From NCBI GenBank assembly GCA_937921735.1, contig CAKZTQ010000009.1, forward strand, positions 1 to 22,862: a stretch of 22,862 bases of DNA. The letters run 5' to 3'. Below are positions 1,723 to 22,835 of the stretch, in pieces; position 1 is the first letter of the stretch; each line of letters starts with the position of its first letter. This DNA comes from an uncultured archaeon (GTDB lineage Archaea > Hadarchaeota > Hadarchaeia > Hadarchaeales > Hadarchaeaceae). The notes under the pieces were generated by a model that searched no databases, had not been told where the DNA came from, and worked only from the letters and a program-made list of their open reading frames with translations. The position numbers were made by a program, and so were the translations under genes.

Positions 1723-2217
1723 TTAAAAGCACTTTTCACGAGCCCGGTTCAGGACGTCTCTGAGGGGGGCGAACAGCGCTTTGGTGACCGGGTGGCTCCT
1801 AGGCTCATCGAGCATATAAAGCACCAGGGCGTCCCTCCACAACGTTCCGTATATTTTGAGGAGCTTGGCGGACACGGCTGCGGAGTAGCGGAGGATTGTT
1901 CTCCTGAGACCCTGCCTAGTGTAGAGGATGTGGAAGCCGCGGTTGTATTGCTCCGCCAAATCGCTGATCTCCCAATGCAATACGCGCTTCCTCAGATTCT
2001 CCTCAAGGTGCTTCTTAACGACCTCGACAATTTCGGAGGAGCGCTGCGAGAGGATCTCCTCGCAGCACTCGACCCCGAGCAACTTTACAAACTCGCGGCG
2101 GACGTTCACGAAAACGGCGGCGTCCGCCAATACGCGGTTGAGCCTGCGATCCTCAAAAACACTTACCTCGCCCTCGCATCCCAACATGCTCCAGGACATG
2201 CATTCACCAACCCTCAT
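1723..2217 (-). CDS. Hypothetical protein (helical)
   Basis: 164-aa ORF, ATGA-coupled to 2214..2792. Confidence 0.65.
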   Translation of the reverse strand: MRVGECMSWSMLGCEGEVSVFEDRRLNRVLADAAVFVNVRREFVKLLGVECCEEILSQRSSEIVEVVKKHLEENLRKRVLHWEISDLAEQYNRGFHILYTRQGLRRTILRYSAAVSAKLLKIYGTLWRDALVLYMLDEPRSHPVTKALFAPLRDVLNRAREKCF

Positions 2218-2792
2218 GAAATCCGGGGTGACTTAAACTTAACTCTCGACGAGGATGTGCTCAGCGATCGAAGGGGGACGACTTCGCCACGCGCGTGGCG
2301 GGCCTCGGCCATCGCTTCCCGCAAAGCCTCGTTGAGCCTGCGCAGGATTCTGCGCGCCTCATAGTCAAGGATCCCTTCCAAACACTCCTCCATTTCGCGG
2401 ACGTTTAAGTCGGCAAGCCCATACTTTCTCAGCAGCCCCTCAACTTCGAGCGAAACATTCAGCCTGACGAAGGGTCCGCGGTTTCTGTTCCATGAAATCT
2501 CCTCAACGTCCACATAATCGTGAACGTCAGGATTGCTGCCTGAAACGATCCTTTCAAGGGCAAGCGCTTTGAAAAATCTTTCCCAGCTTTCGCTCGCCAT
2601 TGAAAGCTCTTTCCGCAGTTCGCGATTCTCAAGATTCACGGCCACATCCCTGAAAACTATGGTGCAGTATTGGACTCCGTAGGTGTCAAGCTCTTCAACC
2701 TCGCCGAAGAATATCCCTATGCGCGCAAGCTCATCTCTGGCCTCGGCAACAATCTCGTCGATGACCTCGTCGATGATGTATGCGGGGAACAT
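2214..2792 (-). CDS. Hypothetical acidic protein, first gene after leader-repeat copy 1
   Basis: 192-aa ORF with SD GGAGGTGG at 2799-2806. Confidence 0.75.
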   Translation of the reverse strand: MFPAYIIDEVIDEIVAEARDELARIGIFFGEVEELDTYGVQYCTIVFRDVAVNLENRELRKELSMASESWERFFKALALERIVSGSNPDVHDYVDVEEISWNRNRGPFVRLNVSLEVEGLLRKYGLADLNVREMEECLEGILDYEARRILRRLNEALREAMAEARHARGEVVPLRSLSTSSSRVKFKSPRIS

Positions 2793-2907: not shown

Positions 2908-2951
2908 TTAGAGAACCCGACTTTGGGTGGGGGCGGCTTGTCCCCGCCCTT

Positions 2952-3107
2952 TTAATTTAAGAGCCTGTCAAGACCATGTTTTTGCACGACGAGGGGAACC
3001 GTCCTATTCAAGCCGTCCAGCACCATCCGCATCCTCCCAGGGTTCGGCTCGGGGATCTTTACAACGCCGTAATTGTCCGCACCCACCTCGCATATCTTCA
3101 CCCGCAT
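2952..3107 (-). CDS. Small hypothetical protein (51 aa), not in ORF track
   Basis: Manual translation MRVKICEVGADNYGVVKIPEPNPGRMRMVLDGLNRTVPLVVQKHGLDRLLN*, preceded by GAGGAGGTTGAGG. Confidence 0.5.
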   Translation of the reverse strand: MRVKICEVGADNYGVVKIPEPNPGRMRMVLDGLNRTVPLVVQKHGLDRLLN

Positions 3108-7215: not shown

Positions 7216-8334
7216 TTAGTCGATCGTGAACAGCAGCACTGACCTGCCCCTCACAGCCCTCGAGACGACCTCCATGTCTCTGGAGGGGTCTCCGGTGGGC
7301 TGGATTCCAAGGCTCTCCGCGAGATCGTTGACCGCTGCCTCCAGCGCCTCAACATTCCTCGATGCGGCGGCGGACAAGACATCGCCCAAGACATCGAAGG
7401 GCCTCTCGTCAAACTCAACGCCCGTGCTCTCGATCAGACGTGAAAGCTGCTTCAGCCTTTTGGCCGCAGCCTGACAGTTCGCCCTCCCGCCCCTCACGGC
7501 GGCTTTCACGGCCTCTTCAGCCATCGCCATTACTGCGGAGAACCTCTCCTCCAGGTCGCGCTTAAGCCCCTCAAGCATCTCTCTACGTCTGCGCTCGATC
7601 TCCCTCTCCAGCGAGGCAAGGCCGACCCTCCTCGCCTCGTCGACCTCGAGCAGCGCCTTCCGCCTTTCCTCCTCAAGGTACTGTATGAAGAACTCCCTTG
7701 AAAGGCTGAGCGGAACCGGAGAGACCCTTATTGAAGCGAGGTCCGCCCTGAAGTCCGGCTCAACGCCCGTTTTAGCCACGTGCTCCATTATGTCGGAGAA
7801 GTGGTCGCCTTCCTCAAACTCAGCGATGTCGCGCTTCAGCGCCCGCAGCTGACCGTTCAAACCATCAATTTCCACCATGAGCCCCGGCGCCAAACTCGAC
7901 GGAAGAAAATACAGCTTACGCTTCAACCTCCCAATGCGTTCCTCTTGAAGTATGAGGCAGTTTTCGTTGAGGGCGTCGTAGACCTTATGCCTTATGCCTT
8001 TGAGGCGGTTCACGAGCATGCTCGGATACGGATGGAATGTCGCAACCTTAACCTGGCGGCCGGCCTCGTCCTTCACGTAGCGAACCCTGACGCTGCGCCC
8101 CCTCAAAATTCCCCCACTTTTCCCCGTTACGGCAACCCTGTAGTTCGCGTCTATTGACCTGAGAAGGTCCTGAAGTCCCCTCACCCACTCCATATGCTCG
8201 ACGTCGCCCATCCCTGAAACGTCAACTTGCATTGCAAGCCTTTCCTCTGAGGGTACGTCCACATCAATGAGGAAACCCTGCGTAAGCACCCTGCCCGCTT
8301 TGACCCGAACCTTTCCGGAGACTGTTAAACCCAT
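7216..8334 (-). CDS. Coiled-coil hypothetical protein heading the MoxR-vWA block (possibly DUF3150-like)
   Basis: 372-aa ORF with SD GAGGTGG, a KLYFLP motif and a long coiled coil. The DUF3150 resemblance is inferred from context and that motif only. Confidence 0.7.
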   Translation of the reverse strand: MGLTVSGKVRVKAGRVLTQGFLIDVDVPSEERLAMQVDVSGMGDVEHMEWVRGLQDLLRSIDANYRVAVTGKSGGILRGRSVRVRYVKDEAGRQVKVATFHPYPSMLVNRLKGIRHKVYDALNENCLILQEERIGRLKRKLYFLPSSLAPGLMVEIDGLNGQLRALKRDIAEFEEGDHFSDIMEHVAKTGVEPDFRADLASIRVSPVPLSLSREFFIQYLEEERRKALLEVDEARRVGLASLEREIERRRREMLEGLKRDLEERFSAVMAMAEEAVKAAVRGGRANCQAAAKRLKQLSRLIESTGVEFDERPFDVLGDVLSAAASRNVEALEAAVNDLAESLGIQPTGDPSRDMEVVSRAVRGRSVLLFTID

Positions 8335-8356
8335 CTACACCACCTCTAACGCTTTC

Positions 8357-8474
8357 TAGGCGGGTTCTCCCGGATCGCGAGGCTCCCCCGCCTTCGCCCC
8401 TTGGAACCCGGGTTTGCAGGATGCGCCTACTCGCATATGCGACTCCAAAAGCAAAGGCTGCGAGCGCTTAAAAA
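8357..8474 (-). promoter_or_regulatory. Putative promoter (TTTTTAAGCGCT) + palindrome TCGCATATGCGA + structured 5' leader
   Basis: Shares AGCGCTTAA (8463-8471) and CGCATATGC (8432-8440) with the 3-copy repeat. TAGGCG 8357-8362 / CGCCTA 8424-8429 form an inverted pair. Confidence 0.55.
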
Positions 8475-8488
8475 GAGGACCGCCGCGG

Positions 8489-12787: not shown

Positions 12788-13130
12788 TTGACGCTCTCCA
12801 CGGCTAAAGCCGGGAGATTCCTGCTTCTAGGGTTTTCATGGGTTGGTCGTTCACCGCCCTTTTAGGCTCCCACTTCATCCCGTTCCACCTTAGAAGCAGG
12901 GGGTGTGCCACCGCCCCGTTAACCTCGCCTCCGTGGAGGCGAGCTATATTCAGGACTCCGACAGAGTCTCTGTGTGCTTCTAGCCCGCAGCTTAGGCATT
13001 TAAAGAGCCTTCCCTTGGCGGCTGTGTTCTTTGAGCGGCATCTTGGACATACGCTTGACGTTCGGTATTCGCCCTCTTCTTTAACCTCTATTCCGTATTC
13101 CTCCGCTTTCTTGTCAAGTATTTGTAAATT
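12788..13130 (-). mobile_element. tnpB: 5'-truncated IS200/IS605-family element: tnpB 3' fragment (12804-13130) + right end
   Basis: An unlisted frame reads ...DKKAEEYGIEVKEEGEYRTSSVCPRCRSKNTAAKGRLFKCLSCGLEAHRDSVGVLNIARLHGG...GISRL* (TnpB Zn finger + RuvC-III). Subterminal hairpin at 12796-12816, then GAGAGCGTCAA ending at 12788. Confidence 0.92.
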
Positions 13131-13993
13131 TCAGGTATCTCGCTTGGATCCTCGAACGCGTAAGCCTCGTCCGAGAGGCTGGTGGGCTTGACCTTCCTGT
13201 CGACCGTCACGGCAATCGTCCTCCCAACGGATTCTCCGCTGAACGGGACAGGTTGAAACCTTCCTCCGAGCTTCGCAGCCAGCCTTGAGCTCGCCTTGAA
13301 CGCGGCTCTGCCGCGGAAGCCCTCTATGAGCTCCGCCAGCCCGTCGAGGTCCTCCCGCGTCGGCTCGCAGCCACCATGCAGCGCTCCCCTGCCCACGGCC
13401 CTGAAGTCGTTTATCAGGAAGTCGCTAACGCCCATGTTCAGGCACTCCGCAATTATCCTCCTCATCAGCGGAACGCCGTTGCGGAACAGTAGCAGGTTGA
13501 CGCCCAGATCGAACTTCCTGCCCACGAACTTCCTCAAAAGGGAGCAGTCCTCGAACGCTCTAACGCTGACCCTGACCTCGCCGGCGAAGCCCTCAATTGC
13601 CTCGATTTGACCCTCAGAGGCGACCGTGCCGTTCGTCGTTATCGAAACGTCCAGGCCCGTGTTCAGCCACGTCCACCTGACAAGTTCCGTCAGATGCGGG
13701 TGGAGGAAGGGCTCGCCGCCGCCGAAGGCGACGCCGAGAATGCCCCATCTGTCGAAGAAGGCGATCAAGCCCTTCAGATCTTCGATGGGTAATTCCTCCC
13801 CCTCCGCGGAGGATGAGGCGTAGCACCACCAGCAACGCAGGTTGCACCTGCTGGTCACGGCGACCTGAGCGTAAAGGGGCTTCAGCCAAACTTTCGACCT
13901 TACATCGGGAGCGTGAAGGCACAGCCCGCTTTCCCTATCGTATATGAACAGCCCTTCAGGCGTTTGTATGCTCCTCAAAAAACCACTTCCCAT
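13088..13993 (-). CDS. Radical SAM protein
   Basis: CNLRCWWC (CxxxCxxC), FGGGEP, ITTNG. The last ~13 codons overlap tnpB-derived sequence, so the C-terminus may be truncated. Confidence 0.9.
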   Translation of the reverse strand: MGSGFLRSIQTPEGLFIYDRESGLCLHAPDVRSKVWLKPLYAQVAVTSRCNLRCWWCYASSSAEGEELPIEDLKGLIAFFDRWGILGVAFGGGEPFLHPHLTELVRWTWLNTGLDVSITTNGTVASEGQIEAIEGFAGEVRVSVRAFEDCSLLRKFVGRKFDLGVNLLLFRNGVPLMRRIIAECLNMGVSDFLINDFRAVGRGALHGGCEPTREDLDGLAELIEGFRGRAAFKASSRLAAKLGGRFQPVPFSGESVGRTIAVTVDRKVKPTSLSDEAYAFEDPSEIPEIYKYLTRKRRNTE

Positions 13994-14060: not shown

Positions 14061-14696
14061 TTAAAAATTGATGTTTAGGGGGGGAGCATAAACCTTGATC
14101 TCTTCGTAATTGATGTTCAACCTTTCGAAGATGCGTCTTACAGCCTCCGCAAGTTCATTCGGCACGATTATCACGTTTCTTCCAAGCCTCGCCTTCTCGT
14201 CTTTAATGACGCCCTCATACTTGTAAGTCCTCGTTCCTCCCGCGATTTGCTTTCTCTCAACATAGGTGTACAAGGCCCTTCTCAGCCGCATCATTGTGCT
14301 TGAGCTGAGGTTGCTTGTCGAGTAGGTGAAGATGGAGTACGGCTTCAGATTTAGGACCTTCTCCACGGGTATCTTTAAGGGCGGCTTCACCATCAAGATA
14401 AGCCCCTCCCTCAGGACGTTGTCAACGAAGGTCCAATCCTCTTGACTCATATCTTCCAGGTTTGAGGCGTGAACGTCCACCTTAACGTCAAGCCCGCCCC
14501 TTATAACCATTAGCGCATCTAAGCTCTTTTCATGATTTTCCCTTGAGTCGAAAAGGGCGAGAATGTCTATGTCCGATCTGCGATCCTGCTCCCCCCTCGC
14601 CACGCTCCCGTACAGGGCGATTAGAACCAAACCCGGCAGGCGGTATAGCCTTTCAACAGCGCGGGTTACTTGCTCACTCAAGATTGAAGTTGACAT
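14061..14696 (-). CDS. Minimal nucleotidyltransferase (MNT) antitoxin with an extra C-terminal domain
   Basis: LYGSVARGEQDRRSDIDIL is the GSx10DxD motif; overlaps the upstream HEPN gene. Confidence 0.9.
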   Translation of the reverse strand: MSTSILSEQVTRAVERLYRLPGLVLIALYGSVARGEQDRRSDIDILALFDSRENHEKSLDALMVIRGGLDVKVDVHASNLEDMSQEDWTFVDNVLREGLILMVKPPLKIPVEKVLNLKPYSIFTYSTSNLSSSTMMRLRRALYTYVERKQIAGGTRTYKYEGVIKDEKARLGRNVIIVPNELAEAVRRIFERLNINYEEIKVYAPPLNINF

Positions 14697-15048
14697 TTAA
14701 CCTCCTCCCTAAGAACGAGAGTATTGCATTCAGGTGGTTCATAGCTCTCTCAGGCGTGCCTATAGGCATCCTGCCAGAATAACCCATGTCGACGTATATC
14801 CTGTAGAGATCCTCGAACCTGTCAGCTATCTCCCTAGGGTAGTGGGTTCTCACCCAAGCTCTAACCTCACTATGCTCCCTGTAGTGGATGCCTGATGTGC
14901 CTATCCTGGCCAGTTCAGCTTGCACGGCTTGCTCACAGGCCTTATACGCGAGGTCGGCCATTGCCGAGAAGCGGCGCTTCAGATACTCATCCTTCGCAGC
15001 CTTAGCCTTCTCAACGGCAAGCGCGATGTGCGAGTTGAAGTCTCCCAT
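14674..15048 (-). CDS. HEPN domain protein (toxin partner of MNT)
   Basis: All-helical, 124 aa, LAYKACEQAVQA and HYREH; adjacent to MNT. Confidence 0.8.
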   Translation of the reverse strand: MGDFNSHIALAVEKAKAAKDEYLKRRFSAMADLAYKACEQAVQAELARIGTSGIHYREHSEVRAWVRTHYPREIADRFEDLYRIYVDMGYSGRMPIGTPERAMNHLNAILSFLGRRLNVNFNLE

Positions 15049-17731: not shown

Positions 17732-17980
17732 TCAGTAGCTGTTTATCTCCTCGTCTATTTTCCGCTCAATCCATTCTGTAAGCTCTTTCGCGTCCACGCA
17801 TATCTCAGCCCACTCGTCGAACTTGCAGCCCTTCGGAGCGCCCGGATCCCTCATCTTACGCCTGATTCGAACCCTGTATGGGATGCCGAGCCGACTAAGC
17901 ACTTCCTCAGCTATGTCCGTTGCGATGTCATGGGCCCAGAACTCGAAGATGAGGATATCGCGTTTCAAATTCCTCGACAT
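17732..17980 (-). CDS. Hypothetical protein, first gene after leader-repeat copy 2
   Basis: SD GGAGGTGA and ATG are supplied by the repeat. Confidence 0.75.
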   Translation of the reverse strand: MSRNLKRDILIFEFWAHDIATDIAEEVLSRLGIPYRVRIRRKMRDPGAPKGCKFDEWAEICVDAKELTEWIERKIDEEINSY

Positions 17981-18101
17981 GGATCTTCACCTCCAAAAAA
18001 CGCGCATATGCCTCCTAGGGACTGGGCTATGCCGTTAAGCGCTTAACAGCCCAGCCGGGGCCAGGTCTTGGACGCCCCGCTCAGCCCTAGGCTTGGAAAA
18101 A
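17978..18101 (-). repeat. Structured leader/promoter repeat, copy 2
   Basis: 124 bp identical to 22712-22835, running through the SD and ATG. Confidence 0.97.
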
Positions 18102-18112
18102 GGAGTTGTGAT

Positions 18113-18566
18113 TCAGATGCGCCGGATGAGGGATGGCGATATGATTCTGATAGTTTTGCCCGAGACGTTTTCGTGTCTTTCGTATAATGCGACTGGTTTT
18201 CTCCTGAAGGCAGCTAGGCTAATGCTGGTCGCTTTCTTCCCCCAGCTTACGTCGCCGTAAAGTATCAGTGGGCATGTGGTCTTCGATTTTTTGATGAAGT
18301 ATTTGACAACTTCTCGGTGTTCCTCGCGCGGAATGAGCTCAAACGCATCTTTCCTCAGCCTCTTTGAGAACCAATCTATAATGATGCGGGGCCTCGCTCG
18401 GGTTTGAGCGTCAGGTCCATATGGATTTTAGGGTTTTCCAGCGAGTTGTGTGATAGAGAAAATCGTCTTCGAGAAATGATGTGATATAGTAATCCCTGTT
18501 AAGTTCATAGCGAAGTTTGTTGCCCTCTGTGAGCATATCCTCAATCAACTGATTAGCAACGGACAT
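18113..18566 (-). pseudogene. ~150-aa hypothetical gene with a +1 frameshift; lower GC than its neighbours
   Basis: SD GGGGTGA + ATG 18566 gives MSVANQLIEDML...RWKTL. After the run at 18426-18429 the next frame is open to TGA 18113 (NPYGPDAQ...SLIRRI*). Span 454 = 3n+1. Confidence 0.65.
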
Positions 18567-19981: not shown

Positions 19982-20212
19982 TCAGTCGAGAAGTTTCCAC
20001 CTTCCGACTATGCCTTTCGCCTTGGAGACGATAACGCCTAATAGGGCTGATGTCGAGCCGCACTTGTTGCACGCATACTCGATCTTTTCGAAGGTTTCTT
20101 TGAAGGCTATGTAGCCGTCCCTCCTCACGCGGAAGCTTCCAATGTAGTCCTCTGACAACAGCGACCAGTCCATGGCCCCGCATTGGAGGCAGAGCTGAGC
20201 CTCGCTTTTCAC
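19982..20212 (-). CDS. Small Zn-finger protein
   Basis: CLQC...CNKC; GTGA-coupled to the vWA gene. Confidence 0.65.
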   Translation of the reverse strand: MKSEAQLCLQCGAMDWSLLSEDYIGSFRVRRDGYIAFKETFEKIEYACNKCGSTSALLGVIVSKAKGIVGRWKLLD

Positions 20213-21453
20213 CCATTTGCCTCCTTGATGCGCGCCTTGGTGAAGCCTGGGGCTTCAACGGGTTTATGTGTGTAGCCTAACATGGCGAAGCCGGCTTTGG
20301 CGGAAATTTTCCTGAAAAGGCTCTGCGTTTCCCCTTCCTCCGCGTCGAAGATTTCCCCGTCAGTCAGCACTATCACCGCGTCGCCGGCCCTCATGAGGCT
20401 GAGCACCTTGCTCAAGGCCGGCTTGATCACGGTCCCGCCCCCGCCCCTCATCTTCGGCGCTATTTTACGCGCAACCTCATCCGGCCTAGTTGCCTTGAGG
20501 ACTTCATATGCCTCGCCGTCCCACGGTATGGCGTATACATCTGCCCTCTTCGCTTCATACTTGACGATGCCTAGGAAATGCCTGAGATCTTCCTCGGAGA
20601 TGCTGCCGCTCGTGTCGATTAGGCACCATGTTGAATAACGGTAGCCGTAGTAGCCTGGATAGTCGTCTCCGCGGCGGCTTGGATACGCGAAGGAGCTGTC
20701 CTGTTTAGAGTGGTTTCTCACGCCGAAACGGAGGGTTAAATGCCATGGAGGCTTAACCTCGAGGACTTCGCCGACGAGCCTTTCAAGTCCGGCAGGCATG
20801 CTTCCAGCCTGCTTGGCGAAGTCCCTTGCCCGCTCGAGGATGCGCTTCCATTCCCTTTCAAGCTCCCCCCGGCTTTTATCCTTCCCAACGGCTTTATCCC
20901 CTTCCTGAACGGTTTCACCCTCAGCTTCTCCGTCGAGAAGGTCGCCTTCAAGCCTATTGCCCTCGGCAAGCGTTCCAGCAGTTTTTTCAGCTAAGCGTTC
21001 AAGCTCCCTCGCAATTTCTTCGGTGCTCATCTTATGCAATGCTTCAACGCTTATGCCCGTTTCCCGCGATATCTTTTCAAGAGTGACCTCGTCTGCTCGA
21101 CCATATTCAATGCCCGAGACGCCTGCCCCGCGTATGGCGTCGTTCACCTTTCCATCCGCTGCTATGTTGTAGGCCGTGTTGTCGAAGCCTTTACGCCTGA
21201 AGGGGTGGCATAAAACTACGTGGAGCGACTCATGGATTGCGACGAAGCGCTTGGCCTCGACGCTGAGGCCTGCCCACCACTCGGGGTTTATGGCGAGCGT
21301 TCCCCTCTCATCCACGCCTGCCGTCGGAACGGTTTTGGTCGAAACTATTCGAAGGTAGCTTAGCGGTATGACAACGAAGGGGAAGTATCGACCGCAGAAT
21401 ATCCTTACGTCGCGGATGTCTTGCCTGAGCTGCTCAACACCCATAAAGTTCAC
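20209..21453 (-). CDS. DUF2201-type putative metallopeptidase + vWA-like domain protein
   Basis: TAGVD, HESLHVVLCH, YNIAAD...N, DTSGSI, GGGGT, VLTDG. True start is probably ATG 21444. Confidence 0.9.
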   Translation of the reverse strand: MNFMGVEQLRQDIRDVRIFCGRYFPFVVIPLSYLRIVSTKTVPTAGVDERGTLAINPEWWAGLSVEAKRFVAIHESLHVVLCHPFRRKGFDNTAYNIAADGKVNDAIRGAGVSGIEYGRADEVTLEKISRETGISVEALHKMSTEEIARELERLAEKTAGTLAEGNRLEGDLLDGEAEGETVQEGDKAVGKDKSRGELEREWKRILERARDFAKQAGSMPAGLERLVGEVLEVKPPWHLTLRFGVRNHSKQDSSFAYPSRRGDDYPGYYGYRYSTWCLIDTSGSISEEDLRHFLGIVKYEAKRADVYAIPWDGEAYEVLKATRPDEVARKIAPKMRGGGGTVIKPALSKVLSLMRAGDAVIVLTDGEIFDAEEGETQSLFRKISAKAGFAMLGYTHKPVEAPGFTKARIKEANG

Positions 21454-21553: not shown

Positions 21554-22714
21554 TTACAGCAGAGCCCTTCCCGTGAGCTCAAGACACTTGAGGACGGTTT
21601 GGTTCGCCTTCACAGCGTTGAAGACTTCCCGCCTTTTTGGCTTTTCGAGAAAGGCGAAGAGAGCCGACATGAACTCCCTATCGTCCGCCTCTGCAACGTA
21701 CTGCATGAACCCTTTAGCCTTCGAAATGTTCCCTGAGTCCTTGTTTATGGCTTCGGCAACGGTTATCGCTGCAAGGTACTTCTGCTCAACCTTGAAGTTG
21801 CTGACGAGTTGAGGCACCTTCACCAACTCGTCGAAGCTCGGAACCTTGTTGCTCAAGAACGCCATCAGGGTTTCACCGACCCTTCCAAGCTTGCCCTTGG
21901 CTATGCTGAAGAGGAGCTCCTCGCTGTTCCGCCGCTTCCGCGCTTTCACCTCGGCGAACGCCAAGGCAACATACGACCAGCCTCTGGGGGTTGCGGGAGG
22001 CTCGTAGCCGCTGTCCTCGACGGTGTCCAAGATGTTTGCGAGGAAGTCGCTCGGCTTCCAGTAAAGGTATGCGAGTACTTCTCGATCCCAGTTCTCGCGG
22101 CCGTACGTCTCATCCATCCACTCCGCCCAATCCTCAATCGGCGGAGCCTCGACCTCAACGAAGTCGAAGCGGTCTCTGAGCGGCTTCGGAATGCTGTTGG
22201 CTATGCTGCTGTACTGGGCGCTGTTTGAGGCTGCGATGACCATGGCTCTGGGGTTGAGGGCGATGTCGCCTATCTTGTAGTCGCGGACTATCTTGTAGGC
22301 GTTGGCGATCATGTTAGGTCGGCTCTCGTTGAGGAACTCATCTAGGAAGAGCAGTCCGGCGCAGGCGTTGAGAAGCCTCGCAACGCCCAAGGGGAGGAAC
22401 ATGACGTACTTCGAGTTGACCGGGCGGGGTTGTCCTGAAACGTCAACGGGATCCATGCTCGTAAGCCTGCAGTCCTTGAAGATGAAGTAGCGGTCTTCAT
22501 CTTCAAGGTACTTTTCAACTTCCTCAGGCGGTATCGCATCTGCGTCTACGAACTCGAGCTTAAGCTGCTTCGCCTTCCTCACCGCCCACGCCCTTGTGAA
22601 GGCCGATTTGCCTATTCCAGCGGGCCCTATGAGGTGCAGCGTTATTGGCTCGCGGCCTTTGATACGCATGTCGTAGGCGAGTTCAAACCTCTCAGCAAGG
22701 GATCCTAAACGCAT
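21554..22714 (-). CDS. MoxR-like / AAA_5 ATPase (virus-type, DUF2201-associated), first gene after repeat copy 3
   Basis: GPAGIGKS, DPVDVSGQP, LLFLDEF, IAASN, LRDRF, ATPRGW. Confidence 0.92.
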   Translation of the reverse strand: MRLGSLAERFELAYDMRIKGREPITLHLIGPAGIGKSAFTRAWAVRKAKQLKLEFVDADAIPPEEVEKYLEDEDRYFIFKDCRLTSMDPVDVSGQPRPVNSKYVMFLPLGVARLLNACAGLLFLDEFLNESRPNMIANAYKIVRDYKIGDIALNPRAMVIAASNSAQYSSIANSIPKPLRDRFDFVEVEAPPIEDWAEWMDETYGRENWDREVLAYLYWKPSDFLANILDTVEDSGYEPPATPRGWSYVALAFAEVKARKRRNSEELLFSIAKGKLGRVGETLMAFLSNKVPSFDELVKVPQLVSNFKVEQKYLAAITVAEAINKDSGNISKAKGFMQYVAEADDREFMSALFAFLEKPKRREVFNAVKANQTVLKCLELTGRALL

Positions 22715-22835
22715 GGATCTTCACCTCCAAAAAACGCGCATATGCCTCCTAGGGACTGGGCTATGCCGTTAAGCGCTTAACAGCCCAGCCGGGGCCAGGT
22801 CTTGGACGCCCCGCTCAGCCCTAGGCTTGGAAAAA
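22712..22835 (-). repeat. Structured leader/promoter repeat, copy 3
   Basis: Identical to 17978-18101. Stems 22748-22754 / 22819-22825; palindrome 22768-22781. Confidence 0.97.

Follow-up and report, generated by a model that had tools for sequence, protein, structure and literature searches.

In T4-type phages, repeated cassettes combining a promoter with a stem-loop (PeSLs) stand before orphan genes and are described as also serving as recombination patches; according to the reports on them, they are numerous and carry a consensus host (sigma-70) promoter, and their recombination products, terminator activity, and promoter activity were shown experimentally (PMC2839356, PMC4122927). The description of the haloarchaeal myovirus HGTV-1 places a TATA-like region with an inverted repeat before most open reading frames (ORFs) of its left arm and likens these motifs to PeSLs (PMC3950731). 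Frpo, a promoter of bacterial sigma-70 architecture, is defined in its report by −35 and −10 boxes rebuilt in a long hairpin (PMC11541004). Here, we analyzed a 22,862-nt stretch of DNA (hereafter, the window), which is the entire contig C9 of a 1.06-Mb metagenome-assembled genome (MAG; 60 contigs, 83% complete) from a marine archaeon that has not been cultivated and whose genome measures approximately 1 Mb. The MAG encodes a TBP, which marks it as archaeal. An original prediction made from these letters had proposed that a 124-nt repeat in the window is an archaeal analogue of Frpo/ssi single-strand promoters or of PeSLs. The element is a well-defined local repeat with a putative function, of a kind that is already known and for which an archaeal precedent is in print. 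With somewhat less than even confidence, we tentatively read it as an intergenic expression cassette that is portable and belongs to an accessory and probably mobile island.

Repeat search and alignment confirmed the 124-nt direct repeat in three copies, all on the minus strand. Copies C (22712–22835) and B (17978–18101) were 100% identical over 124 nt, and copy A (2789–2912) was 77% alike without gaps and 94% alike across 108 nt when one gap was allowed. Read on the gene strand, copy C consists of a T5 tract (22831–22835), the letters CCAAG, an arm CCTAGGG (22819–22825), a G4/C4 hairpin, the palindrome TTAAGCGCTTAA (22769–22780), a second arm CCCTAGG (22748–22754), the box GCATATGCG (22737–22745), a T6 tract (22729–22734), the Shine–Dalgarno (SD) motif GGAGGTG (22722–22728), a 7-nt spacer, and an ATG (22712–22714). 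The 7-bp inverted arms enclose approximately 70 nt. TTAAGCGCTTAA is a perfect palindrome of 12 nt at the tip of the second hairpin and lies 35 nt from GCATATGCG, which agrees with the arrangement described in the original prediction, a palindrome about 35 nt upstream of a box followed by the SD. The identity between copies B and C runs from the T5 tract onward and ends exactly at the ATG, and their flanks are unrelated. In copy A, GCATATACG replaces GCATATGCG and TTTCT replaces the T6 tract; inside the fold, this copy differs by one extra T, a G-to-A change at an unpaired junction, and an A-to-G change that turns a U-A pair into U-G. A leader mini-ORF in copies B and C (ATG CGC GTT TTT TGG AGG TGA) was dismissed as coincidence; copy A has ATA at its start.

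The position of the repeat was as regular as its anatomy. Each of the three assembled copies was intergenic, occupied the full gap to the upstream frame, and stood directly 5′ of a co-oriented ORF, and its 3′ end supplied GGAGGTG, a spacer of 5–7 nt, and the ATG of that ORF. Copies C, B, and A open ORFs 21554–22714, 17732–17980, and 2214–2792, respectively, as expected from the proposal that the array is split into blocks headed by the repeat; the blocks between copies were 4.7–15 kb long and held many genes each.

Two boxes of the repeat recurred at a fourth position, site E (8432–8471, minus strand), in a 154-nt gap (8335–8488) upstream of ORF 7216–8334. In the whole MAG, TTAAGCGC followed after 20–45 nt by GCATATGCG was found only at the repeat copies and at site E, and the chance expectation of an extra pair was approximately 0.007 (24 non-repeat TTAAGCGC sites and 22 GCATATGCG sites; 2.1 Mb, both strands). 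At site E, the first box lies inside TTTTTAAGCGC and the second is a 12-nt palindrome, TCGCATATGCGA, with a spacing of 31 nt as compared with 35 nt in the repeat. The site has neither the stem arms nor the second half of the central palindrome, does not fold, and was missed by an nhmmer profile of the repeat copies. That the boxes persist at site E in the absence of stems suggests that the recurring functional core consists of the two boxes and their spacing rather than the hairpins.

The surroundings of the repeat were those of an orphan-rich region. In keeping with the original description of co-oriented and mostly unknown genes, 36 of the 37 ORFs picked from the ORF list of the window lay on the minus strand, and 32 had no match passing the curated Pfam cut-off, leaving five that did. 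The ATPase of 386 aa encoded behind copy C was found in none of 45 genomes of the same family and in three of 64 genomes of the order, at 34–36% identity; because this gene is missing from family relatives and rare in the order, we regard the region as accessory. The region upstream of its most similar homologue (34% identity; genome G044) was A/T-rich and held nothing resembling the repeat, and no related locus was confirmed in a viral contig collection by way of the ATPase, DUF2201, and MoxR proteins. The last 141 nt of contig C12 are the reverse complement of the last 141 nt of the window; since this end overlap includes 27 unique nt beyond the repeat, C12 extends the window upstream of copy C. 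The only public sequencing run with matches to the window DNA was a marine metagenome, which is probably the source, and no RNA run was listed.

The reading of the repeat as an expression cassette starts from this anatomy, position, and orientation, from the confinement of the copies to the island, and from the recurrence of the two boxes without stems. Site E favors a double-stranded promoter/operator joined to a leader, PeSL-like in logic. From these features we infer promoter or operator activity, termination at the T tracts, and a mode of spread. Oligo-T serves as a termination signal in archaea, and the cassette opens with an oligo-T tract that would end upstream transcription; in copies B and C, this tract begins 11–15 nt after the preceding frame stops. 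Two short palindromes, TTAAGCGCTTAA and GCATATGC, approximately 35 nt apart, would form the promoter/operator core. The first box may seat TBP and TFB or a regulator, and the second would overlap or adjoin the transcription start, a usual site of action of repressors in archaea. A short leader would follow, and then a full translation start (GGAGGTG, spacer, and ATG) that would be handed to any gene placed behind it. An array of about 25 kb of co-oriented genes would in this way be divided into separately started, probably co-regulated units, for which ribbon-helix-helix (RHH) proteins and an extra TBP encoded just upstream are the likely regulators. The copies would have spread by recombination or duplication within the island, two of them being still identical.

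For the promoter part of this mechanism, we used a 10-nt matrix for the TFB recognition element and TATA box (BRE/TATA) trained on the 60-nt upstream regions of 26 tRNA genes of the host (consensus AAACTTAAAT). The matrix sites of the tRNA genes were located mostly at −35 to −28, and most scored approximately 8–13 bits. Against this scale, the TTAAG that the original prediction had called TATA-like was not borne out, because no position in the palindrome TTAAGCGCTTAA scored above 0.2 bits. A sigma-70 scan returned no sites. A positional A/T profile upstream of crude gene calls had been uninformative, and the tRNA-promoter matrix was used in its place. The best host-type TATA near any copy was an A/T-rich stretch, CTCTTAAATTAAAAG (2948–2964, minus strand), located approximately 40 nt upstream of copy A and overlapping the stop of ORF 2952–3107; it scored 8.3 bits, within the top 0.1% of background.

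Several of these results weigh against the cassette. Within the element, there was no host-type BRE/TATA, the best scores being 4.6 bits at the edge of the T5 tract in copy C and 1.2 bits in copy B. Given the TATA-like stretch about 40 nt upstream, copy A may be merely a transcribed leader. Copy A has also lost the GCATATGC palindrome. In copies B and C, the T6 tract, which follows the presumed start site and precedes the SD, could itself terminate archaeal RNA polymerase. Site E is a single case, and with only two sequence versions of the repeat, conservation cannot separate a function at the DNA level from one at the RNA level. The matrix represents tRNA promoters only, and a noncanonical promoter may escape it; since the element has no recognizable host-type TATA, it would, if it is a promoter, be a noncanonical one.

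The same observations bear on a second explanation, in which the repeat is a structured leader or intercistronic RNA. Transcribed from promoters further upstream as a segment of long polycistronic RNAs, the repeat would form a three-way junction, made of a closing helix and two hairpins, just 5′ of the SD. The junction would then influence, in cis, stability or processing, read-through at the T tracts on either side, or how the following gene is translated. The 92-nt core of the sense RNA was predicted to form such a junction at −43.1 kcal/mol (z = −1.7, matched by 12 of 200 shuffles); the antisense RNA folded somewhat less well (z = −0.6). None of the three changes of copy A within the fold disturbs the structure: they fall in a bulge, at an unpaired junction base, and in the U-A pair that becomes U-G, which pairs only on the sense RNA. 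The rough probability of this by chance was about 0.07. If the stretch CTCTTAAATTAAAAG upstream served as its promoter, copy A in its entirety would be a 5′ leader, and a canonical promoter region may exist at the head of the array: C12 1453–1577 is an A/T-rich intergenic region ahead of the RHH ORFs and contains a 13-bp inverted repeat (TGTATCACAAAAA/TTTTTGTGATACA). This region and the RHH ORFs probably form the head from which the co-oriented array is regulated.

The fold itself gave this explanation little to build on. As DNA, the 124 nt yielded z = −1.45 on the template (plus) strand, where 18 of 200 shuffles folded equally well, and z = −1.62 on the sense strand; the corresponding values for copy A were −0.9 and −1.2, and the fold in a 163-nt context gave z = +0.43. 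Across RNA and DNA and either strand, 6–21% of shuffles reached the energies of the repeat. The palindromes are real, yet the fold is not beyond chance, and the "hairpin element" of the original prediction did not hold up in that sense. In Rfam 15, the window had no match at gathering score (the best weak match reached 16 bits as compared with a threshold of 60), and the repeat matched no family at E ≤ 10 beyond noise. A scan for bacterial-type terminators found no terminator-like site, the G4/C4 hairpin and the T5 and T6 tracts being present. The two sequence versions allow no real test of covariation, and the boxes of site E occur without stems, which also argues against an RNA structure as the recurring unit. 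We consider a leader RNA rather unlikely, yet still a serious rival of the cassette.

A third explanation treats the repeat as a mobile or recombination element, either an insertion resembling a miniature inverted-repeat transposable element (MITE) or an att- or attC-like site, with its position before genes being secondary. The 7-bp inverted arms around about 70 nt, the two identical copies, the break of the assembly at the repeat, and the extra contexts in the source run are consistent with this explanation. Integron core sites follow the pattern GTTRRRY/RYYYAAC, and the central palindrome of the repeat (GTTAAGC/GCTTAAC) fits it. The MAG also encodes tyrosine recombinases, and fragments of TnpB lie at 12807–13130 of the window and on contig C34. 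However, the homology of all copies passes beyond the arms, 5′ into the T tract and 3′ to the ATG, and no target-site duplication was visible, in contrast to a MITE. The core sites are adjacent at the hairpin tip rather than at the base of the stem, and the blocks hold many genes, as opposed to the short single-gene cassettes of integrons, in which one attC site lies 3′ of each cassette. All copies lie on one contig, point the same way, and hold the same place with respect to gene starts; the tyrosine recombinase genes of the MAG were found only on C14, C42, and C49, which are not linked to the window contig by end overlaps. Taken by these features, the repeat corresponded to neither an integron attC site nor a MITE, and we judge a mobile or recombination element to be distinctly improbable as the primary identity of the repeat.

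Searches for further copies also bear on this explanation. The rest of the MAG yielded none by blastn (word size 7) or by nhmmer with a profile of the three copies; the match at the end of C12 is the same copy as copy C, and C27 gave a weak match of 24–58 nt (E = 0.003–0.05). No copy was found in 60 related genomes, where the best result was a match of only 27 nt in G002 (E = 0.0014). In public collections, a 28-mer and a gapped pattern had no matches in viral contigs, and a 20-mer had none in genome contigs. The single match of the 20-mer in a metagenome contig collection shared the 20-mer alone and was set aside as chance; likewise, a three-box pattern had no match in the viral contigs and two matches, both from Gluconobacter, in the genome contigs, which is approximately the number expected by chance. 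Because relatives and public collections gave no copy, the repeat appears, within these searches, to be private to the island and to have no comparative series.

Contigs of the source run added at least one further context of the repeat. One contig has a different 5′ flank. In a second, the repeat runs through GGAGGTG and then continues into other letters, with a 5-nt spacer and an ATG (a reading of 30 letters). No joint between repeat copies was found among these contigs, which drop rare variants and are silent on rare recombinants; the sole joint listed in them (10805>19275, side 23) is unrelated to the repeat. As regards recombination of the PeSL type, copies B and C are identical between unrelated flanks, no product between copies was seen, and no related genome carries the island.

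The region upstream of copy C encodes candidates for regulators of an expression cassette. A second, divergent TBP with two TBP repeats is encoded at C12 140–871 (minus strand). This protein shares 38% identity with the host TBP encoded on C39 and at most approximately 40% with any TBP from 64 genomes of the order. Inspection of the alignment by eye suggests that the Asn/Val and Phe residues contacting DNA are retained, and many genomes of the order had two to six TBP matches. Two paralogous ORFs (C12 1578–1979 and 2034–2486) have C-terminal parts that match the NikA-like RHH family PF21983, and the second stops 9 nt before copy C. In a more specific form of the cassette, the repeat would be an element-specific noncanonical promoter/operator that is unread by the host TBP and switched on by the TBP paralog and the RHH proteins of the island. 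We think this version very unlikely; if true, a mobile element would carry its own general transcription factor together with promoter-leader cassettes pasted before new genes.

A fourth explanation is an archaeal counterpart of Frpo/ssi, in which the hairpin would rebuild a promoter on incoming conjugative single-stranded DNA for early expression of cargo. The co-oriented genes and hairpin-capable repeats, the two NikA-like RHH ORFs directly upstream of copy C, and the PilB/PilC-like genes, prepilin peptidase, and ParB on contigs linked through the assembly graph would suit such an element. In contrast, relaxase (PF03432), VirB4 (PF03135), and TraG-type coupling protein (PF12696) had no matches in the 83%-complete MAG, so the flanks that were to be checked for these genes gave nothing: among the window and the linked contigs C12, C36, C34, and C31, only the NikA-like RHH family was present. 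Profile searches with Pfam and PHROGs supported the earlier statement that no relaxase or capsid gene is visible in the window; VirB4 and the coupling protein were likewise not found there, and neither the window nor C12 matched a capsid family. Frpo/ssi would be expected on the transferred strand of a conjugative leading region, beside oriT and relaxase, and no such surroundings of the repeat were recognized in the window or the linked contigs. The template-strand fold is not exceptional, the stem rebuilds only a 4-bp TTAA/TTAA duplex scoring 0.2 bits as a TATA box, and site E has no stems. A literature search on archaeal single-stranded DNA promoters turned up, among the records retrieved, only work on bacterial conjugation and plasmids. 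Early expression on incoming single-stranded DNA, as proposed originally, found no support in the search for conjugation genes, the ordinary fold, or the stem without rebuilt boxes. Activity of the repeat on single-stranded DNA has no positive support, and we regard an archaeal Frpo/ssi as exceedingly improbable.

The genes that the repeat precedes belong to few recognized families. The ORF behind copy C (21554–22714, minus strand) encodes the 386-aa P-loop ATPase (phrog_1297) and is followed by a DUF2201/VWA-like protein (20209–21453, minus strand; phrog_1314). The ORFs behind copy B (17732–17980, minus strand; 82 aa) and copy A (2214–2792, minus strand; 192 aa) matched no family. The five ORFs that passed the Pfam cut-off encode an RNase H-like protein with SWIM, a MoxR-type AAA protein, a radical SAM protein, an NTP_transf_2 (MNT-type) nucleotidyltransferase, and the DUF2201 protein; PHROGs recognized the RNase H as well as the paired ATPase and DUF2201 proteins encoded behind copy C. 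Of the MoxR-vWA and RNase H cargo named in the original prediction, the MoxR-type AAA and RNase H-like proteins were recovered, and the VWA_2 match fell just below the cut-off. The supposed toxin–antitoxin pair was supported in one half, by the MNT-type nucleotidyltransferase domain, and its 124-aa neighbor (14674–15048) had no family match.

The nucleotidyltransferase (14061–14696) is adjacent to the radical SAM protein (13088–13993), both on the minus strand. In PADLOC, the former matched PDC-S09 models, and the latter partly matched viperin models, in the SAM core only. Just behind the radical SAM gene lies a TnpB remnant of the IS200/605 type (12807–13130, minus strand), a startless frame of 108 codons with the Cas12f1-like TNB domain of the TnpB C-terminus (57.5 bits). 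Source-run contigs pile up at this remnant with higher depth and variants, as for the end of a multi-copy insertion sequence, and a 41-nt stretch recurs on C31. A second startless frame (18116–18427, minus strand; 104 codons with no ATG, GTG, or TTG) contains a Walker-A-like GDVSWGKK and overlaps the end of ORF 18411–18566; its stop is 11 nt short of copy B. Frameshift or truncation may have left this frame as a gene remnant. Examined as a possible truncated ATPase, it had no Pfam match, and its weak matches in two genomes of the order were spurious, lying in a 473-aa ORF that by eye resembles an unrelated enzyme. The ORF behind site E (7216–8334, minus strand) encodes a coiled-coil-like protein of 372 aa that resembles viral (Uroviricota) hypothetical clusters in ESM Atlas (score, 0.93, with low recognition, and therefore a lead only); approximately 15% of the members of those clusters carry DUF3150. 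A 300-aa ORF had no ESM Atlas match.

At the other end of the window, positions 1–141 and the right end of C34 share approximately 140 nt, and both continue into the left end of C36. The junction falls within two different ORFs whose last 13 codons are the same (GSELSMDMYGAHA); it may mark the edge of the island, a difference between strains, or a segment that has been duplicated. The PilB/PilC-like, prepilin peptidase, and ParB genes lie on C34 and C31. Elsewhere in the MAG, CRISPR repeats occur at contig ends (the ends of C57 and C21, and C45), and none of the three spacers recoverable from these contig-end arrays matched the island. On C24, the end of a 16S gene is followed by tRNA-Ile and tRNA-Ala in a spacer of bacterial type, and this contig may be foreign to the bin.

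If the repeat is a working module, it shows how mobile islands of uncultivated, small-genome archaea organize and shuffle long arrays of orphan genes. The idea of a mobile regulatory cassette, known from T4-type phages and proposed for one haloarchaeal virus, would then reach another archaeal lineage, in the form of a compact, self-contained expression signal with a terminator-like tract, control boxes, SD, and ATG.

Compared with integron attC sites, which include Vibrio repeats of about 124 bp, the repeat is of similar length, is an imperfect palindrome, and belongs to a co-oriented, orphan-rich array; in contrast to attC sites, its cores are misplaced in the fold, it stands 5′ of genes and brings SD and ATG, it heads blocks of several genes, and no integron integrase is nearby. 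With Frpo/ssi it shares a hairpin-capable repeat upstream of co-oriented cargo, whereas no conjugation machinery or oriT was recognized, no promoter boxes are rebuilt in the stem, the fold is not unusually stable, and the transcription machinery is of the archaeal and not the sigma-70 kind. The motif of HGTV-1, compared here by its description, is likewise an archaeal repeated motif with an inverted repeat before ORFs; it belongs to a cultured tailed virus of halophiles and includes a TATA-like box, as opposed to the few copies and the lack of a scoring TATA at this locus. Like PeSLs, the repeat is an intergenic stem-loop of G and C runs with T tracts that precedes orphan genes in a plastic, co-oriented accessory region, and its near-identical copies could offer stretches of homology through which shuffling takes place. 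Unlike PeSLs, it has no recognized host-type promoter inside the motif, it is known in only three to four copies, and its cassette also carries SD and ATG. The likeness is one of position and logic and implies no common descent, and the activities of the cassette are predicted ones. Of the two analogies first proposed, that with Frpo/ssi has no support from the conjugation-gene searches or the unexceptional fold, and that with PeSLs fits in anatomy, position, and logic.

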